Source of the DNA: Promethearchaeota archaeon
Lineage (GTDB): Archaea; Asgardarchaeota; Lokiarchaeia; Sigyniarchaeales; Promethearchaeaceae
Assembly: GCA_016933055.1 (NCBI GenBank)
Contig: JAFGBS010000014.1
Location: 30,001 to 62,000, forward strand
Direction: 5' to 3'
DNA length: 32,000 nucleotides
The position numbers were made by a program, and so were the translations under genes. Within the stretch, counting starts at the first letter, position 1. Each line of letters opens with the position of its first letter. This document shows, one piece after another, positions 13,632-23,942 of this stretch. The notes under the pieces were generated by a model, which was given only the letters and a program-made list of their open reading frames with translations, was not told the origin of the DNA and made no database searches.

Positions 13632-14426
13632 ATGGCGAAGAAGAAATCCTCCACGGAAATGGACACGAAAAAAGAAACTATGGAAGAAAAACAAGTAGAT
13701 TCTGAAATACAAGAAAAAGAAGAGGAATTAAAACCTGAGAAACTTGACGAAGCGTTAGATGCAAGTGAACCCGAAGAAGAAGAAGATGGAACATCAAGGG
13801 ATGAAAAATCCAAAAAGAAGAGCACAGAAATTAAACTGTTCAACCGTTGGAGTTTTGAATCATTAGAAGTTCCAGATCCAAGTTTAGAGAGGTATATTAA
13901 TCTTAACCCCGTTATTATTCCTCATTCTGGAGGAAAACACGAACATAAGAGATTTTGGAAAACCCTTCATGTATCTTTTGTAGAACGATTCATTAATAAA
14001 ATTCTTGCACCTGGTCTTGTTCGACGACGCATCAAAGGAAGAGGATCAGCATGGAATGCAGGAAAGAAACAGAAAATCTTAGGAATTATTCAGAATGCAT
14101 TTACAATTATTGAACAAAAAACCGGAGATAATCCCCTCCAAGTACTCATTGATGCAATTGTTAATGCAGCGCCTCGAGAGGAGACGACAAAGATATCTTT
14201 AGGTGGAATATCCTACCAAACAGCAGTTGATATCGCACCACAACGACGAGTAGATCTAGCAATTCGTTTATTAGTCCAAGGAGCTGTGGGACAAACATAT
14301 AATTCCCTCAAAACAATCGATGAATGCATAGCAAACGAAATTATATATGCTGCACGTAATGATCAAAACTCTCGAGCGATTAAACGAAAGGACGAAATGG
14401 AAAGAATAGCCATTTCTGCAAGATAG
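13632..14426 (+). CDS. rps7: 30S ribosomal protein S7 (uS7) with acidic N-terminal extension
   Basis: IKLFNRWS, NPLQVLIDAIVNAAPREE, AVDIAPQRRVDLAIR, and KRKDEMERIAISAR. Confidence 0.96.
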   Translation: MAKKKSSTEMDTKKETMEEKQVDSEIQEKEEELKPEKLDEALDASEPEEEEDGTSRDEKSKKKSTEIKLFNRWSFESLEVPDPSLERYINLNPVIIPHSGGKHEHKRFWKTLHVSFVERFINKILAPGLVRRRIKGRGSAWNAGKKQKILGIIQNAFTIIEQKTGDNPLQVLIDAIVNAAPREETTKISLGGISYQTAVDIAPQRRVDLAIRLLVQGAVGQTYNSLKTIDECIANEIIYAARNDQNSRAIKRKDEMERIAISAR

Positions 14427-14451: not shown

Positions 14452-15006
14452 TTATTGGGCTGTTACAATCCCAGAACTGGTTAGAATTAATTCCTTTTTT
14501 GTTTGAGATAATATAATATCCCGCATTGCTTCCATATTAGACCTTTTAATCGCTATCATACCATAAGTCTTTACGCCTAAACGTTTAGAGACCTCTTCCG
14601 GAGTGAGACTACCGACCAAATCTTGCTTATTTGCAATAGCGATGATCTCGCTACCCAATTTTTTTCCGTATTTCTCTAGCATGGTTTTGGTTTCATTAAC
14701 ATTTTTTTCCGATGAATCTGTCACAACAACTGTTAGTCCAGAACCTTTGATCCATTCATCCCACAAAAACTGGAAACGTTTTTGACCCCCAAAATCCCAG
14801 ACCATCACTGATATGGTATTATTTTCGCATTCTTCGAAGTCAATTTTTTCAACATCTACGCCAATAGTTGGGATCCGCTGAATTTGTATTTCCTTTCCTT
14901 GAAGAAGGCGTAGTAATGATGTTTTCCCGACTCCCCCTTCACCGATAAAAATACATTTTGAACCGTTATCGATCATCGTTGACCACAATGTCTTGTAGTG
15001 AGTCAA
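14452..15006 (-). CDS. Small Ras-superfamily GTPase, Arf-like
   Basis: G1 GEGGVGKT, G2 PTIG, G3 WDFGGQ, RFQFLWDEW, and G4 ANKQDL, the Arf-type context. G5 is degenerate (GMIAI). The start is uncertain (TTG 15006 or ATG 14976). Confidence 0.85.
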   Translation of the reverse strand: MTHYKTLWSTMIDNGSKCIFIGEGGVGKTSLLRLLQGKEIQIQRIPTIGVDVEKIDFEECENNTISVMVWDFGGQKRFQFLWDEWIKGSGLTVVVTDSSEKNVNETKTMLEKYGKKLGSEIIAIANKQDLVGSLTPEEVSKRLGVKTYGMIAIKRSNMEAMRDIILSQTKKELILTSSGIVTAQ

Positions 15007-15070: not shown

Positions 15071-16948
15071 TCATTTGTTTTTTTTTTTACTTGCTTTGCG
15101 TATTAATTCTTTAAATACCTGTATTTGTTTTTCTTCCTCGGGTATTTCTACATTTGTCCTATATTCCTCTTCAGTTAGGTGTTGTTCACGTTTTTGTTCC
15201 TCTTTTTGTTTTACCACTCCTGAAATCATCTTAGATATATTCTGGAGCTCTTGAAGTTCTTGTTGCTTACGGAAATCTTCAGCTTGTTTCTGCGCTTTTT
15301 GTTGCTGCTTTTCTTGCTGTTGGACTAGTTGCTTTAATTGCAAATCAGAAAGTTGTTGGTTTTTCAACTTAAGAATTTTCTCAATTTCTTCTTCCATATA
15401 CGGAATCTGTTCAAACCATTTTAGAGTTTTAAATTTTTCAATAGCTTCCTCGTAGGCACGAATAGCACTGTCAAATTCTAAATTCTTTTCATATTTTTTG
15501 GCTTCATCTAAATATTTAAATGCTGTATTCTCAATTGATTGAATAGATTGTTGCTGTTCTTGGAATTTAAGGAGACTGGCTTTTTGAGACTCCTTTTCAA
15601 TATCAAATTCTTTCATGTAATTTATAATTCGGGATAAAAAATCCTCCAATAATGAAATAGCATGATTTTTAATATGTTCTAAAGTTTCGATTCTTTGTTT
15701 ACGTATGTCTAAATTTTTATACAAAATGTCTATGATAGATTGTACTTTCGATTTTTCCTCCGACCATTGCGATTTTTCTATCAAATGATGGGCAACTTTA
15801 TACAACTCAATTTTTCGTTTGGATGACGGTTCATCTGTACCTTCGATTTGGGAAGCATCAGTTATAGTTTCAAATACTTGTTGTTCGTAAGATTTCGTTT
15901 TAGGTTGCAGAGAAGAAGATTCTGTTGAATGGAAGGGTTTACCTTTCTCATTTTCTTTCTCCAATATTTTTTCCTTAAAATATTTACGGATGTCATCACT
16001 AAGACGAATTTTTTCGATATACGCAAGATGCTCTTGCTGTTCCATTAATTCATGCTGAAATTGATTTTCCCTAACCGTAGAAATTATTTCGGTTAATCGA
16101 GATACTCCATCCTGCCATCCTACATTGATAAGATTTTGTGCAGCTTGTTGCAAAATTTGGTAGATAGAGGCATAATTGAGATTATCAATTGCTACTTCAC
16201 ATTCTCGAATAAGCTGGGATCCCCTAATTAAATAGTTATATTGGTTTTTTTTACGCTCATCGAACTCCTTAATACTAATCTTCCGAGACTCAATTTCTTT
16301 TTGGAGAGTTTCTCGACTTTTTCGAAACACATCAAAATCCTCTAATTCTGGTTGAACTATCTGCTTTTGGAGAGATATGTTATAATTCTTTAAGTCTTGA
16401 ACCCATTGATCTATCTGTTCTCGTATTCGTGGAGTATATGATTGCCATCCAATAGAATTCAGCAAAATTATCGCTTGATTATAATTTTTTATTGCTTGTT
16501 CAAAGTTTTTTTGGTTGGCAAGAGTAACTCCCGCATCCATTAAATCAAAGGCTTCTCTCTGGATATTTTCTTCATGCTGTTTGTGCAATTCAAATTCTTT
16601 GAGACTTTGATTTTGGGTGCGATATAACCTTCGGGGGGTTTCTAACTGGGATTTTTCTTCAACAACCGTTGTATCTTCACTTTTTATTGGGATACTTATC
16701 TCTTCAGTGATCGATTCCCGTAATTCTTGGATTACTTCCTGAATTTTTTTAGTGATATTTGTCCATCGCAATTCATTTAAAATATCAATTAATTCCAAAT
16801 ATATCGTAATTGCTTCCTCTTTCTTATCTTCGTTAACAAGAGATTCGGCTTGTTGCAACATCAAAAATGCTTTGTCTTGCAGTTCCCGTACATCACTTTT
16901 ACGTTTTTGTACATCGTCCTTAAATTCCATGGAATTCACTTCTATCAA
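15071..16948 (-). CDS. All-helical repeat protein: five TPR/MIT-like units about 110 aa apart plus a C-terminal coiled coil
   Basis: Recurring AFxxLxxA...F/YxxAIxxYxxAIxxL...W units with Trp at aa 62, 168, 278, 395 and 511. Q/E/K-rich tail. Confidence 0.7.
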   Translation of the reverse strand: MIEVNSMEFKDDVQKRKSDVRELQDKAFLMLQQAESLVNEDKKEEAITIYLELIDILNELRWTNITKKIQEVIQELRESITEEISIPIKSEDTTVVEEKSQLETPRRLYRTQNQSLKEFELHKQHEENIQREAFDLMDAGVTLANQKNFEQAIKNYNQAIILLNSIGWQSYTPRIREQIDQWVQDLKNYNISLQKQIVQPELEDFDVFRKSRETLQKEIESRKISIKEFDERKKNQYNYLIRGSQLIRECEVAIDNLNYASIYQILQQAAQNLINVGWQDGVSRLTEIISTVRENQFQHELMEQQEHLAYIEKIRLSDDIRKYFKEKILEKENEKGKPFHSTESSSLQPKTKSYEQQVFETITDASQIEGTDEPSSKRKIELYKVAHHLIEKSQWSEEKSKVQSIIDILYKNLDIRKQRIETLEHIKNHAISLLEDFLSRIINYMKEFDIEKESQKASLLKFQEQQQSIQSIENTAFKYLDEAKKYEKNLEFDSAIRAYEEAIEKFKTLKWFEQIPYMEEEIEKILKLKNQQLSDLQLKQLVQQQEKQQQKAQKQAEDFRKQQELQELQNISKMISGVVKQKEEQKREQHLTEEEYRTNVEIPEEEKQIQVFKELIRKASKKKNK

Positions 16949-17026: not shown

Positions 17027-17920
17027 ATGTTGGTTTTTGAGATAATGCACACCATAGATTCTCTTTCGAGTTTTCTGGAAAATCAGACACAGAAAAATGC
17101 TAAATATGCATTTCTATTAGATACAGGTTTAATCATAAAAAGTACTATATCCGAAGAGAATCTTATGCAACTAGTGAAGTTCATCCCTCGTATATGTAAA
17201 GAAGTGAAACCTGGGACTTATTTACATAAATCTAAATTATATATCTATCGATTAACATCCCAATTTATTATTTTTTTGCTAACCAACAAAGAACACCAAG
17301 ATGTCGATGCGATTTTAGAAGAAGTTGCTGATCGTTATTCACTAAAAATCTCTCGAGAGTTCAACCTTCAATCTCAAGGCACTATAGGACACATAATTAA
17401 AACCATTGTGTTTTCAGTAACAACAGAAAGAGGACCCGAGTTGATGGATTGGATGGTAAATGACCACGCTGTTGGAGATAAGGATGCTTATAAAATTGCC
17501 ATGAAAACTATGCTAAATCTAACTGATGAAATTGAAGGGGCAAAAAATCGTGTACTGTTTTTTCAACCATTTCTAAGTTATAATTCCTTAGGTATCTCCT
17601 ATTTATTTCAGATCCCCTATCCTGGAGCACGAGGGGGGGCTTTTGATAGCGCTATCACAATTCTCGTCGATTTTCAGCATCGTCCTATAATATACTCTTC
17701 ATATAAAGAATTAGAAGATATTTTACAAAAATTCGAACCATTAATTGCTAAGAAATTTCAAGAGACCTATATAGAAGACGCTTGTGTGAAAAGTGATGAT
17801 TTTAATGGTATCTTAATTGACTTACACAATCGAATTAATACGATTCAGATGAAAATGGTTGATTCTGAGATATTAATGGATGAAATGTTGGACGCTATTC
17901 GAGCTTTAAACGAATTATAG
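17027..17920 (+). CDS. Roadblock/profilin-like domain fused to a uDENN/longin-like domain
   Basis: The N-terminal ~110 aa fit an alpha-beta-beta-alpha-beta-beta-beta-alpha pattern. The C-terminal domain has IVFSVTTERGPEL and LFQIPYPGARGGAFDSAITILVD, resembling longin/uDENN motifs. Fold inferred by eye. Confidence 0.55.
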   Translation: MLVFEIMHTIDSLSSFLENQTQKNAKYAFLLDTGLIIKSTISEENLMQLVKFIPRICKEVKPGTYLHKSKLYIYRLTSQFIIFLLTNKEHQDVDAILEEVADRYSLKISREFNLQSQGTIGHIIKTIVFSVTTERGPELMDWMVNDHAVGDKDAYKIAMKTMLNLTDEIEGAKNRVLFFQPFLSYNSLGISYLFQIPYPGARGGAFDSAITILVDFQHRPIIYSSYKELEDILQKFEPLIAKKFQETYIEDACVKSDDFNGILIDLHNRINTIQMKMVDSEILMDEMLDAIRALNEL

Positions 17921-17934
17921 GACTGAGGTAAAAA

Positions 17935-19893
17935 GTGAAACATATCTTAATTGTGGAACCAATATCAAAACGCATTGAGGTTAAAAGTGGTGCTAGCATT
18001 TATGATGCACTAATTGCTTTAAATTATCCGATTGGCGCGTTGTGTGGTGGAAAGGGAACTTGTGGAAAATGTAAAATCTTATGTGTTAAAAATCAAGAAA
18101 ATTTGTCCCCCCTAAACGTAATTGAGAAAAATTTATTGACTCCCGAGGAACAAAAAAATAATATACGACTAGCATGTCAATCTTTCATTTTTGGGGATAC
18201 TCGCATCTCTTTATTAGAAGGATTAATCTCTCATGGGAATAAAATTCTGATTGATAGCGATTTGCTTGCAGTTAGAGGTAATATCCAAGAGAAATTTGAT
18301 CCATTCATCAAATTAATGCATCTAAAAATTCCTCTTCCTACTTTGCATAACAATGGGGATGATTTATACCGTATGACCTCAATTATTCGAAAATCTTTTC
18401 CTGAACGGGTTTTGCATTTGTCCCCAATTATGATAGATAATGATCTTTATACGATCACAAGATCGATGTCCACTAAAATTCGATCTAAGGAAGGCAAAAT
18501 TACATTATATTATTGGTTAAAGGATGAAACTCTCGAAATCCTTGATGTTGAAGAAGGTTATAATAAGAAATTATATGGTATTGCAATTGATTTGGGTACC
18601 ACTACTATTGTAGGATATTTAATAAATTTACTTTCAGGGGATATTGTATCAATATCCTCGATGTTAAACCCTCAAGTAAGTATTGGAGAAGATTTGATAA
18701 CCAGAATAAGTTATATTTGTCAAAATGAAGCCAAACATACAGCACAAACATTACTGATTTCTGCGTTAAATCAGATCCTTACAGATACCTGTGAGAAAGC
18801 AAAAGTTTCCAAACTAGATGTAAAGGAATTAGTTGTTGTAGGCAACACGGGCATGCATCACATGTTATATGGTCTCAATTCAGAACAATTGGCTCGTACA
18901 CCCTTTGTCCCTGTATTTAAAGCCCCAATTTATATCAATTCAGCACAATTGGGGATTCAAGCTTCTCCACAAGGGCGTTTATATAGCCCCCCAGTTGTTG
19001 CTGGATTTGTAGGTACAGACACGATTGGGTGTATAGTATCATCCCGAATTGATACCTACGAAAAATTTAGCTTGTTAATTGATATTGGTACAAACGGAGA
19101 ATTAGTTATGGGAAATCGAAAGGGGCTGATTACGGGTTCATGCGCTGCAGGATCTGCTTTAGAGGGAGCTCACATTTCATTAGGAATGCGAGCAGCAGAA
19201 GGTGCTATTGAATCTCTTACAATTGATCCAAAATCTTTTCACTGCACTATTAATACTATCGGAAATCTCAAACCAATTGGTATGTGCGGCTCAGGGTTGA
19301 TTGATTTAATTGCCGAAATGATAAAATGCAAAATAATAACTCGAAACGGAAATTTTAACGTCCATAATCTTCCAGAACGAGTATTATATTCTTCAAATGG
19401 AGATTTAAATTATATCATTTATGATTCTGAAAAAGACGGAATCTATTTTGAGGATGACCGAAAAAAATTCACTATTGGGATATCTCAAAAAGACATCCGA
19501 CAACTACAATTAGCGAAAGGTGCATTTCTCTCAGGTGCTTATTTACTCAATAAACAGTATCCTTCCGAAAATTTAGAACAGATTTTACTTGCAGGAGCAT
19601 TTGGAAGTTATATTGATAAAGAAAATGCAAGGATTATCGGATTATTTCCAGAAATAACACCCACCAAAATTTATCAAATCGGAAACGCTGCTGGATTAGG
19701 AGCACAAATTTGCTTGAAAGATCAAAATATGAGAAAATTTGCTAATGAGATTGCCAATAAAGTGGAATATTTCGAAATTGCTTCATCCAAAGATTTTCAG
19801 AAGGAATTTGCATTAAGTATGTATTTTCCCCATTATGAATTACACCGATTCCCATCATTAAGAACTATTTATCAAGACCTCCCAATCCGATAA
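17935..19893 (+). CDS. ASKHA-domain reductive activator of corrinoid proteins (RACo/DUF4445 type) with N-terminal 2Fe-2S ferredoxin
   Basis: CGGKGTCGKC...RLACQ 2Fe-2S motif, AIDLGTTT, VGNTGM, GFVGTD, LLIDIGTNGE, GMCGSG, LAGAFGSY, and GNAAGLGA. Confidence 0.9.
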   Translation: MKHILIVEPISKRIEVKSGASIYDALIALNYPIGALCGGKGTCGKCKILCVKNQENLSPLNVIEKNLLTPEEQKNNIRLACQSFIFGDTRISLLEGLISHGNKILIDSDLLAVRGNIQEKFDPFIKLMHLKIPLPTLHNNGDDLYRMTSIIRKSFPERVLHLSPIMIDNDLYTITRSMSTKIRSKEGKITLYYWLKDETLEILDVEEGYNKKLYGIAIDLGTTTIVGYLINLLSGDIVSISSMLNPQVSIGEDLITRISYICQNEAKHTAQTLLISALNQILTDTCEKAKVSKLDVKELVVVGNTGMHHMLYGLNSEQLARTPFVPVFKAPIYINSAQLGIQASPQGRLYSPPVVAGFVGTDTIGCIVSSRIDTYEKFSLLIDIGTNGELVMGNRKGLITGSCAAGSALEGAHISLGMRAAEGAIESLTIDPKSFHCTINTIGNLKPIGMCGSGLIDLIAEMIKCKIITRNGNFNVHNLPERVLYSSNGDLNYIIYDSEKDGIYFEDDRKKFTIGISQKDIRQLQLAKGAFLSGAYLLNKQYPSENLEQILLAGAFGSYIDKENARIIGLFPEITPTKIYQIGNAAGLGAQICLKDQNMRKFANEIANKVEYFEIASSKDFQKEFALSMYFPHYELHRFPSLRTIYQDLPIR

Positions 19894-21266: not shown

Positions 21267-21785
21267 ATGACAAGTAGTTACAAGCTTAAAGTGCTCCTTT
21301 GCGGTCCAGCTGGAGTTGGCAAGACGAGTCTAATCATGCGATTCATCAAATCAAAATTCCAAACCGATTACAAACTCACTGTGGGAGTCGATATCTTGAC
21401 AAAAGACGTTGAATTACCAAATGATCAGATATGTACACTCAGTATTTGGGACATCGGAGGGCAAGAGCGTTTCTCATTTATCCGAAGTACTTTTTATAAG
21501 GGCGCAGCAGGGGCATTACTGGTGTTTGATTTGAGTCGTGCAGCTACTTGGGATGAAATAAAAAATTGGAGAGCAGAAGTTAAACAATTTGCGGGTGATA
21601 TTCCTTTCGTACTAATTGGAAACAAATTAGATCTATTAGCGGATGTAGGTGAGGTAATCGATCGAGATGAAGCTCGTGCGTATGCGGAAAGTCAAGGCTC
21701 AGTTTATATTGAAACCTCCGCAAAAGATAATACTAATGTAGATGAGGCATTCCTTACCTTAACTAAGAGAATTGTAATTGGTTAG
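21267..21785 (+). CDS. Small Rab-like GTPase
   Basis: GPAGVGKTS, TVGVD, IWDIGGQERF, FYKGAAGALLVFDL, GNKLDL and ETSAK. No C-terminal Cys prenylation motif. Confidence 0.93.
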   Translation: MTSSYKLKVLLCGPAGVGKTSLIMRFIKSKFQTDYKLTVGVDILTKDVELPNDQICTLSIWDIGGQERFSFIRSTFYKGAAGALLVFDLSRAATWDEIKNWRAEVKQFAGDIPFVLIGNKLDLLADVGEVIDRDEARAYAESQGSVYIETSAKDNTNVDEAFLTLTKRIVIG

Positions 21786-22715: not shown

Positions 22716-23288
22716 GTGATTCAAATGTCATCTCGATTCGAGCATTTTGTGACGCGTGTGGCACGACGTAGTGATTTTCTCCCCATTCGTAACCAACTTC
22801 TTATCACAATGAAACGAGATGCGGAAGCTAAATACAAAAACTACCCCCGGACTGTTGAACGGATGAAAAAAACATGGGAAGAAGAAAGTTATATGCGTAA
22901 TAACGATATTTCAGGTTTGATTGCTAATAATATTGAAGAATTTTTAGTATCATATCTCATTATGTTGTTTCCCTTTCGAAAAAGGGGAATAACGCTTGAG
23001 AAAGTCTCTACGCCTTCACGATTGGATGTTGTTATAGGTATAAGTTACGATTTTTCTGAAAAAGAGTTAAAAATTATCCAAAATACGTTGGAAACCAGAG
23101 AATTTCCCAAAGATCCGACAACAGAAAAAATTTGTAAATTTTTATTTTTATATTGCATCAATTCCTTTGCGTATCCCATAGAAGAAGTGTTCCAACGACC
23201 GTTCGCATTTATGCCCCAATCTGTAAAAGCAGAATGGATTGATGAACGCCTTAAAGTGATAGTATCCGTGCAAGGTCGCGAACAATAA
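22716..23288 (+). CDS. Hypothetical protein
   Basis: 190-aa ORF that fills the gap between flanking genes and has protein-like composition. No motif recognised. Possible ATG start at 22725. Confidence 0.65.
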   Translation: MIQMSSRFEHFVTRVARRSDFLPIRNQLLITMKRDAEAKYKNYPRTVERMKKTWEEESYMRNNDISGLIANNIEEFLVSYLIMLFPFRKRGITLEKVSTPSRLDVVIGISYDFSEKELKIIQNTLETREFPKDPTTEKICKFLFLYCINSFAYPIEEVFQRPFAFMPQSVKAEWIDERLKVIVSVQGREQ

Positions 23289-23318: not shown

Positions 23319-23804
23319 TTATTTATTATTTTTTAGAAAGGAATTAAGGTCCGTGGAATCCCCATCGCGCTTTTTCACCGTAATTTTTGGACCAATCCCT
23401 AAAATTTTACGTTCTAATTGTTGAATTTGAATTAAATCTAATATATTTGCACGTAACATCCCTTGAGCTCGATAGGTCAATAATACATCAATCTGCTGCA
23501 AAATATCTGGAGGAAGAATAAACTGAAGAATTCGGTGATATAATGCCTTATCCTTGGTTTGAATTTCTTTATAATATCGGAATGCATCAGGTGTCATGAT
23601 AGTTTCTAAAATTACGTCTATTTTATCTTGTAACGAGGGGACGGCGGAAGCACGTTGAGAATTTTGCTGCTGACGTAAAAGGGATTCCATTCTTTTCAAA
23701 CGCAGTTTTTCTAATTCATGATCAACTTCTATATTTTCTTTGTTATTAAATTGGTTTTGATCAGGTTTCTTGGAATTACCAGAATCGTCTTCAGAATCAG
23801 TCAT
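23319..23804 (-). CDS. PDCD5-like (archaeal DNA-binding, programmed cell death 5 family) protein
   Basis: DHELEKLRLKRMESL...ILETIMTPDAF...GPKITVKKR follows the PDCD5 pattern (ELExIRxRR; ILxxILTPEA; basic C-terminal IxRR). The ATG at 23804 is preferred over the track start at 23876. Confidence 0.6.
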   Translation of the reverse strand: MTDSEDDSGNSKKPDQNQFNNKENIEVDHELEKLRLKRMESLLRQQQNSQRASAVPSLQDKIDVILETIMTPDAFRYYKEIQTKDKALYHRILQFILPPDILQQIDVLLTYRAQGMLRANILDLIQIQQLERKILGIGPKITVKKRDGDSTDLNSFLKNNK

Positions 23805-23942
23805 TTGATTGAGAATATGGAGCATCCTTATAAATTGTTTGCAACTTTGAGTAAAAAAAGTGTGACAAAATGCCAATACTTAATTATAGGTTGATAAGGA
23901 TATTTTGAGAAGGTGCAACAGAATTAATCTATAAACCATATT

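Follow-up and report, generated by a model that had tools for sequence, protein, structure and literature searches.

The window, by which the whole 32,000-nucleotide stretch of DNA analysed here is meant, is low-GC DNA (about 35%) from a Lokiarchaeial (Promethearchaeota) genome of 3.76 Mb. The gene under study codes for a Roadblock domain followed by a longin domain, and its genome holds one copy of it. An earlier note had claimed an open reading frame at 17027-17920 on the plus strand; this frame is real and open, gives 297 aa on translation and yields a protein in which the strings quoted in that note are found. An alternative start at M7 (17045) is possible and is where the database copy begins; contrary to this start, the MLVF N-terminus is kept in five homologues. 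The features of the gene and its surroundings are listed here.

14452..15006, minus strand: Arf/Roc-like small GTPase "A", the alternative candidate substrate (Pfam Arf, 1.3e-19)
15071..16948, minus strand: MIT/TPR-repeat protein of 625 aa, divergently transcribed (Pfam MIT, 4.3e-9)
17027..17920, plus strand: Roadblock-longin gene, 297 aa, TAG stop at 17918-17920 (open reading frame and translation)
17030..17365, plus strand: Roadblock domain, aa 2-113 (secondary structure of the model and VIA matches)
17396..17917, plus strand: longin domain and C-terminal helices, aa 124-297 (model and VIA)
17432..17437, plus strand: G136-P137, the "GP motif", in the beta1-beta2 turn
17630..17632, plus strand: R202 (CGA), the candidate arginine finger, in the beta4-beta5 loop
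17935..19893, plus strand: RACo/AcsV-like corrinoid activase, the operon partner (Pfam RACo_C_ter, 1e-80)
21267..21785, plus strand: Rab11-like small GTPase "B", the candidate substrate (Pfam Ras, 8e-49)

Downstream of the Roadblock-longin gene the order is RACo, a histone-deacetylase-family gene and then GTPase B. The GTG start of RACo is preceded by a 14-nt spacer with GAGGT after the Roadblock-longin stop codon, and its product matches the NCBIfam model AcsV at 2e-125 yet falls below the family cut-off. GTPase B finds its best PDB matches in Rab11A (4e-38) and a Thorarchaeota Rab; it has complete G1-G5 motifs with the catalytic Gln, Q66, and lacks an obvious intrinsic arginine. The GTPases near the Roadblock-longin gene are Rab-like and Arf-like, not Rag-like, and the genome as a whole encodes about 50 small GTPases.

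The ribosomal protein uS7 (13632-14426, plus strand) is extended at its N-terminus by about 85 aa, acidic and rich in Lys, ahead of its Pfam S7 domain (aa 86-264), and so are its counterparts in two other loci, L004 and L025. Just 3' of GTPase B, two open reading frames of about 185-190 aa, at 22716-23288 (plus strand) and 23319-23876 (minus strand), have no significant Pfam family. The MIT/TPR-repeat neighbour ranges in size from 625 aa in the window through 1020 aa in locus L006 to more than 1890 aa in L003 (1-2107) and 2121 aa in L046 (896-7261), which suggests repeat expansion of one scaffold protein. A scan for sigma-70 promoters and terminators gave fewer sites than shuffled sequences and was set aside, as these models do not apply to archaea.

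Two domains in one chain

The full-length protein matched no family in Pfam or NCBIfam. Among PDB entries, phmmer matched aa 119-275 to 8YQG, entered as "Longin domain" (E 7e-18), and aa 11-112 to 8YQK and 8YQL, entered as "Roadblock domain" (E 7e-8), and a profile of the family reached E 2.7e-53 for 8YQG and E 4e-26 for 8YQK. All three entries are of the nearest relative, a "Lokiarchaeota archaeon Roadblock-Longin protein", and were released on 2025-03-26; a literature search found no paper describing them. The protein is a member of the same Lokiarchaeial Roadblock-longin family as 8YQG, 8YQK and 8YQL, and the fusion of a Roadblock and a longin domain in a single chain, as proposed earlier, was borne out by its matches to both domains of the PDB protein. 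Clustering at 50% leaves 42 representatives of this small family, and most are 270-300 aa long and matched over both domains.

The crystallised protein is 100% identical to a 268-aa open reading frame in the complete genome G328, which falls in the same taxonomic family as the genome of the window. The two proteins have the same domain order, a similar length and a kept GP motif, and they are 31-32% identical in the longin domain and 26-28% identical in the Roadblock domain. According to the title of 8YQG in the Foldseek listing, the longin domain is dimeric.

An AlphaFold2 model of the window's protein, made with 34 homologues, is confident (mean pLDDT 89.2, pTM 0.66). Within it, aa 2-113 run as a helix, two strands, a helix, three strands and a helix, which is the Roadblock topology. 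By VIA, this half superposes on 8YQK with a Z of 18.8 (rmsd 1.3 Å across 106 residues) and on MglB with a Z of 12.3 (rmsd 2.5 Å across 110 residues), and these two matches uphold the earlier assignment of the N-terminal ~110 aa to the Roadblock fold. An MK-D1 Roadblock follows at Z 10.9-11.4, and the C-terminal domains of Gtr/Rag proteins and LAMTOR at Z 10.2-10.8 (about 11). The Pfam model PF03259 (Robl_LC7) left aa 1-118 unmatched even at E up to 10. In the MglB-MglA systems of Myxococcus and Thermus, MglB, with its superposable fold, forms a dimeric platform for the control of a small GTPase; unlike the Roadblock-longin protein, it has no longin domain, and it supplies no arginine finger.

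The second half of the model has the longin topology of two strands, a helix and three strands (aa 124-215), and its sheet is followed by three helices (aa 216-296), of which the first is long (aa 216-247). The stretch IVFSVTTERGPEL (aa 127-139) forms the beta1-beta2 hairpin, and the ARG-containing stretch of aa 193-215 comprises beta4, the ARG-bearing loop and beta5, so that the beta-hairpins and the long amphipathic helix first described from the sequence are present in the model, the helix as H216-247. Neither a DENN core nor the C-terminal domain of NPRL2 was found after the longin sheet, where there are three helices only, with no Pfam match. By VIA, the longin half superposes on 8YQG with a Z of 24.3 and an rmsd of 1.6 Å, and its matches in named eukaryotic proteins include Lst4 (Z 14.4), a C9orf72-SMCR8 chain (13.2), FLCN (11.1-11.8) and GATOR1 chains (11.2). 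The SNARE longin Ykt6 reaches a Z of 11.3 against the 11-14 of the GAP longins, so the fold alone identifies a longin and does not clearly separate out the GAP type.

A folliculin-type longin with both GAP signatures

Eukaryotic longin GAPs act on several kinds of small GTPase: FLCN-FNIP2 on RagC/D, C9orf72-SMCR8 on Arf and Rab8/11, and GATOR1, through NPRL2-NPRL3, on RagA/B. In the ESM Atlas, the nearest named structural clusters of the longin half all belong to this GAP group (C9orf72, SMCR8, "uDENN FLCN/SMCR8-type" and NPRL2), and further neighbours are Asgard fusions of a longin with a GTPase and one Heimdall cluster that carries Pfam Folliculin. When the longin half alone was compared with Pfam, Folliculin (PF11704) was the sole family listed, at E 0.16 and 12.2 bits, below the gathering threshold of 23.3. 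A family member of 275 aa at locus L013 passes this threshold with 37.3 bits (E 3.1e-9) and is the best Pfam Folliculin match across the 301 genomes of the phylum; three of 34 family members have an E below 0.01. An hhalign comparison of the family's longin profile with Pfam-Folliculin-positive Asgard longins gave a probability of 98.2% and an E of 6e-14, and both GP and ARGG fall in register. The remaining Folliculin-positive Asgard proteins, either fusions of longin, GTPase and Roadblock or longins that stand alone, have GP and ARG(G) in common with the family.

The C-terminal domain is therefore a longin of the folliculin/SMCR8/NPRL2 type with the two signatures that mark eukaryotic longin GAPs, the GP turn and a loop arginine. 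Its likeness to the longins of FLCN and SMCR8 had been proposed beforehand, and Foldseek, VIA, the Atlas neighbours, the hhalign probability of 98% and the score of L013 above the Pfam Folliculin cut-off all agree with it. Membership of the Roadblock-longin family with a folliculin-type longin that bears both signatures is well supported.

The two signatures stand out in an alignment of 34 family sequences extending down to 20% identity, in which only four columns are invariant: G136, P137, R202 and E230. A201-R202-G203 is encoded at 17627-17635. All 34 representatives of the family have R202, as do 18 of 20 further copies from genomes; for G136-P137 the counts are 34/34 and 19/20, respectively. 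Strand 1 of a longin sheet runs next to strand 5, a topology that would place the GP turn and the R202 loop side by side. A GP motif beside an arginine finger has been described for FLCN, NPRL2, SMCR8, C9orf72 and an Asgard longin class, and the paper in question (PMC12290439, 2025) reports the motif as absent from non-GAP longins. The published fingers are R164 in FLCN, R147 in SMCR8 and R78 in NPRL2; SMCR8 R147 is directed at BeF3 in the complex with Arf1, and the R147A exchange abolishes GAP activity (PMC8213707; bioRxiv 10.1101/2020.04.15.042515).

A profile of the longin cores aligns the ARG of the family with A163-R164-G165 of FLCN (PDB 6ULG, chain L) at an E of 1.3, which is not significant alone. 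When the trimmed longin profile was run against the PDB, human folliculin was the only named longin after 8YQG, at E 0.5-1.3; FLCN was not among the matches when the PDB was searched by sequence with the profile of the whole family. The register with FLCN R164 is also supported by the hhalign comparison with the Folliculin-positive Asgard longins. The proposal that the arginine occupies the folliculin-equivalent loop position has thus fared well in alignment, where the profile puts the family Arg on FLCN R164, and its predicted conservation among homologues was confirmed as almost invariant by the counts given above. Equivalence of R202 and FLCN R164 in three dimensions is probable on the grounds of topology and alignment.

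The crystallised relative is itself an exception. In place of the ARGG stretch it has NLKEPEK, without the loop arginine kept by the window's protein and by nearly all members, and as the crystallised member is Arg-less, the existing structures are unable to settle the GAP question. In G363, a second species of the same genus, the Arg is also replaced (NLKEKGK, with Lys-Gly there), and in a third species, G285, the ARG is kept. The Roadblock-longin genes of G328, G363 and G285 are all intact, each with GTPase B as a neighbour. Since the Arg-less genes of G328 and G363 are intact and linked to GTPase B, the protein has a role that survives loss of the arginine, and this could be that of a platform or scaffold, or a GAP activity that relies not solely on the arginine.

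These natural variants bear on the main rival explanation, doubtful though possible: that the protein is a non-catalytic platform, either a GEF or a scaffold for a Rab-like GTPase, in the manner of the multi-longin Rab GEFs Mon1-Ccz1 and Fuzzy-Inturned or of Ragulator, with the Arg and GP shaping a binding surface. GEFs and scaffolds make up the majority of longin/Roadblock platforms (PMC10933270), the linked GTPase B is Rab-like, and the Arg-less members remain intact and linked. Foldseek lists chains of Mon1-Ccz1, Fuzzy-Inturned and BLOC-3 over both domains, with VIA Z scores of 10.5-11; the two-domain matches, however, have an rmsd of 14-19 Å and hence amount to a fit of single domains only. 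Also against a purely non-catalytic role are the reported lack of the GP motif in non-GAP longins (PMC12290439) and the near-invariance of a surface-loop Arg-Gly over a divergence to 20% identity, which is typical of a catalytic residue.

The gene block and its small GTPases

With about 50 small GTPases in the genome, a random GTPase nearby is unremarkable, and it is the recurrence of one orthologue that is remarkable. Linkage was counted in 27 loci from metagenome contigs and genomes. Orthologues of GTPase B (58-96% identical) lie at most 5 kb from the Roadblock-longin gene in 13 of these, RACo adjoins the gene in 11, and MIT-repeat proteins are near it in at least 10. Gene orders differ among the linked loci, and their Roadblock-longin proteins are only 26-68% identical. 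In four of five genomes tested (G328, G285, G207 and G362), GTPase B finds its single best match in the entire genome close to the Roadblock-longin gene, at 58-74% identity (next best at most 46%) and at a distance of 0.2-4 kb, again in differing gene orders. In family f31 (L034-L036), the Roadblock-longin gene lies directly beside GTPase B, without RACo; the distant class-level copies in f3 and f4 have no GTPase B nearby.

The sister family f2 tempers this picture. Orthologues of GTPase B occur in 118 of 127 genomes sampled from it, and a full-length Roadblock-longin protein is found among the matches listed in two only; in f2 genomes, the MIT-repeat protein, a divergent RACo and GTPase B are intact, with nothing in the Roadblock-longin place. 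A test of phyletic co-occurrence between the Roadblock-longin gene and GTPase B accordingly failed, GTPase B being nearly universal in the order and the Roadblock-longin gene patchy. As the block persists in f2 without that gene, its core is made up of the MIT-repeat protein, RACo and GTPase B, to which the Roadblock-longin gene is facultative, and the linkage is moderate evidence only for a partner. It is compatible with a functional tie and may also be inherited synteny.

The same evidence bears on which GTPase would be the substrate of a Roadblock-longin GAP. It is improbable, but worth weighing, that this is Arf-like GTPase A or a GTPase encoded elsewhere, for instance the genome's own degenerate longin-GTPase-Roadblock protein. 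GTPase A and the MIT-repeat protein form a divergent unit beside the gene in the window and in L004, L025 and L006, C9orf72-SMCR8, structurally the closest named GAP, prefers Arf, and the genome encodes roughly 50 small GTPases. Against this, orthologues of GTPase A are found near the gene in close relatives only, namely those same three loci, whereas GTPase B is kept nearby across families f1, f2 and f31 and on metagenome contigs whose Roadblock-longin proteins are 26-35% identical.

RACo raises a different prospect, which is very improbable: that the partner is the co-transcribed RACo-type ATPase, and that the Roadblock-longin protein takes part in corrinoid reactivation as a subunit for regulation or assembly. 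The beginning of RACo 14 nt past the stop codon, behind GAGGT, the adjacency in 11 loci and the lack of a second RACo homologue in the genome all speak for it. ASKHA ATPases, however, are not known as targets of any Roadblock or longin protein; RACo stays beside GTPase B in blocks that lack the Roadblock-longin gene, and the f31 loci L034-L036 have the Roadblock-longin gene without RACo.

The RACo/AcsV-type activase (17918-19893 in the window) is translationally coupled to the Roadblock-longin gene and is the sole RACo homologue in the genome. It keeps adjoining GTPase B and a giant MIT-repeat protein across the order, even without the Roadblock-longin gene (L046 and L050), which ties a corrinoid activase to a Rab-like GTPase.

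Two further observations concern GTPase B itself. A paralogue in the same genome (G000:C28:176696-177244), 76% identical, carries Glu at the Ser/Thr position of the P-loop (GSGKE) and may be a pseudo-GTPase, judging by this replacement; no longin or Roadblock-longin gene was found within 10 kb of it. In G291 (L032:11489-12025, minus strand), G138 and G316 (L051 and L053), the orthologues carry a 30-nt insert inside WDIGGQ (G3), which in G316 is placed 9 nt further 3'. These inserts have in-frame stops and an internal hairpin, and their excision restores the conserved frame exactly, which makes them candidate tRNA-type mini-introns in mRNA.

The only other match to the family profile in the genome of the window is a 454-aa longin-GTPase-Roadblock protein at locus L010 (G000:C11, 335-2844; fusion gene at 1480-2844) with the same GP and ARG motifs. 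Its gene is preceded by one for a 363-aa protein in which a low-complexity linker joins a zinc ribbon to a Roadblock domain. The fusion of the same longin class in cis to a GTPase counts in favour of a link between the Roadblock-longin protein and GTPases.

A putative GAP and its place among known systems

The main reading, given a probability of roughly 45%, is that the Roadblock-longin protein may be an arginine-finger GAP, acting most likely on its neighbour GTPase B. By way of both domains the protein would form a dimeric platform, to which a small GTPase would bind with its switch regions. R202, which adjoins the GP turn at the sheet's upper rim, would then enter the nucleotide pocket and speed up the hydrolysis of GTP, in an action modelled on that of SMCR8 R147 on Arf1 and FLCN R164 on RagC. 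The most likely substrate would be the Rab11-like GTPase B encoded 3.3 kb downstream, and the Roadblock half, together with the MIT-repeat neighbour, would provide the dimerisation and scaffold parts.

This GAP reading is weakened by the position of the window's protein itself below the Folliculin cut-off, by the E of 1.3 for the FLCN alignment and by Z scores near that of Ykt6. It is weakened also by the build of the eukaryotic longin GAPs, which are DENN-bearing heterodimers, the Roadblock-longin protein having no DENN. The Arg-less yet intact genes of G328 and G363 count against it as well, and so does the persistence of the block in f2 without the Roadblock-longin gene. A predicted complex of the protein, in two copies, with GTPase B, GTP and Mg scored 0.60, against 0.49 in a control with chain 1 replaced, and was counted neither way.

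A more far-reaching version is tentative and rather unlikely. In it, a single gene would supply a homodimeric longin GAP that is sufficient by itself and acts on a Rab11-like GTPase; the protein would belong to a conserved Lokiarchaeial module with a giant MIT-repeat scaffold and would represent a minimal prokaryotic counterpart of FLCN-FNIP, C9orf72-SMCR8 and GATOR1. The Arg-less variants within one genus would then mark a recent switch from GAP to scaffold.

Set beside FLCN-FNIP2, C9orf72-SMCR8 and GATOR1, the Roadblock-longin protein has the longin fold, the GP turn after beta1, a beta4-beta5 Arg aligned with FLCN R164 and, by the title of 8YQG, a dimeric longin platform. Unlike them, it has a fused Roadblock domain and neither a DENN core nor the NPRL2-specific C-terminal domain. 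It is probably a homodimer, whereas the eukaryotic longin GAPs pair a catalytic with a non-catalytic longin, and its neighbouring GTPases are Rab-like and Arf-like, in contrast to the Rag targets of FLCN-FNIP2 and GATOR1.

Several Asgard proteins come closer. The "FLCN/SMCR8-type" longins (Traffic 2025, PMC12290439) have the same motifs in the same arrangement; the text of that paper features Heimdallarchaeial proteins and 14 other predicted structures and does not mention a Roadblock fusion. The longin-GTPase-Roadblock Rag-like proteins of Lokiarchaeia (Tran et al. 2024, PMC10933270) use the same three building blocks and the same longin class with GP and ARG; in the Roadblock-longin protein, by contrast, the GTPase is outside the chain and the order is Roadblock, then longin. 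An Asgard operon for a LAMTOR1-like Roadblock protein, a Rab-like GTPase and a DENN protein (Liu et al., bioRxiv 10.1101/2020.10.19.343400) likewise combines a protein of the Roadblock superfamily with a Rab-like, non-Rag GTPase in a conserved neighbourhood, and differs from the Roadblock-longin block in having a separate DENN-domain protein.

The architecture and the motif of the Roadblock-longin protein are already public, the fusion in the PDB and the motif pair in published Asgard longins, and related fusions have been listed before (PMC10933270; Liu et al.). The present analysis adds the conservation across the family, the natural Arg-less variants, the crystallised protein among them, and the recurring set of neighbouring genes, subject to the reservations given. 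GAPs with longin domains regulate Rag, Arf and Rab GTPases at the lysosome, and how they arose is a question for the study of eukaryogenesis. The Roadblock-longin family offers a small, soluble, single-gene protein with a crystallised relative, both catalytic signatures and a candidate substrate encoded nearby, and the occurrence of Arg-less and Arg-bearing versions within one genus provides a natural control. The hypothesis that Asgard longins were already GAPs is thereby directly testable in vitro.
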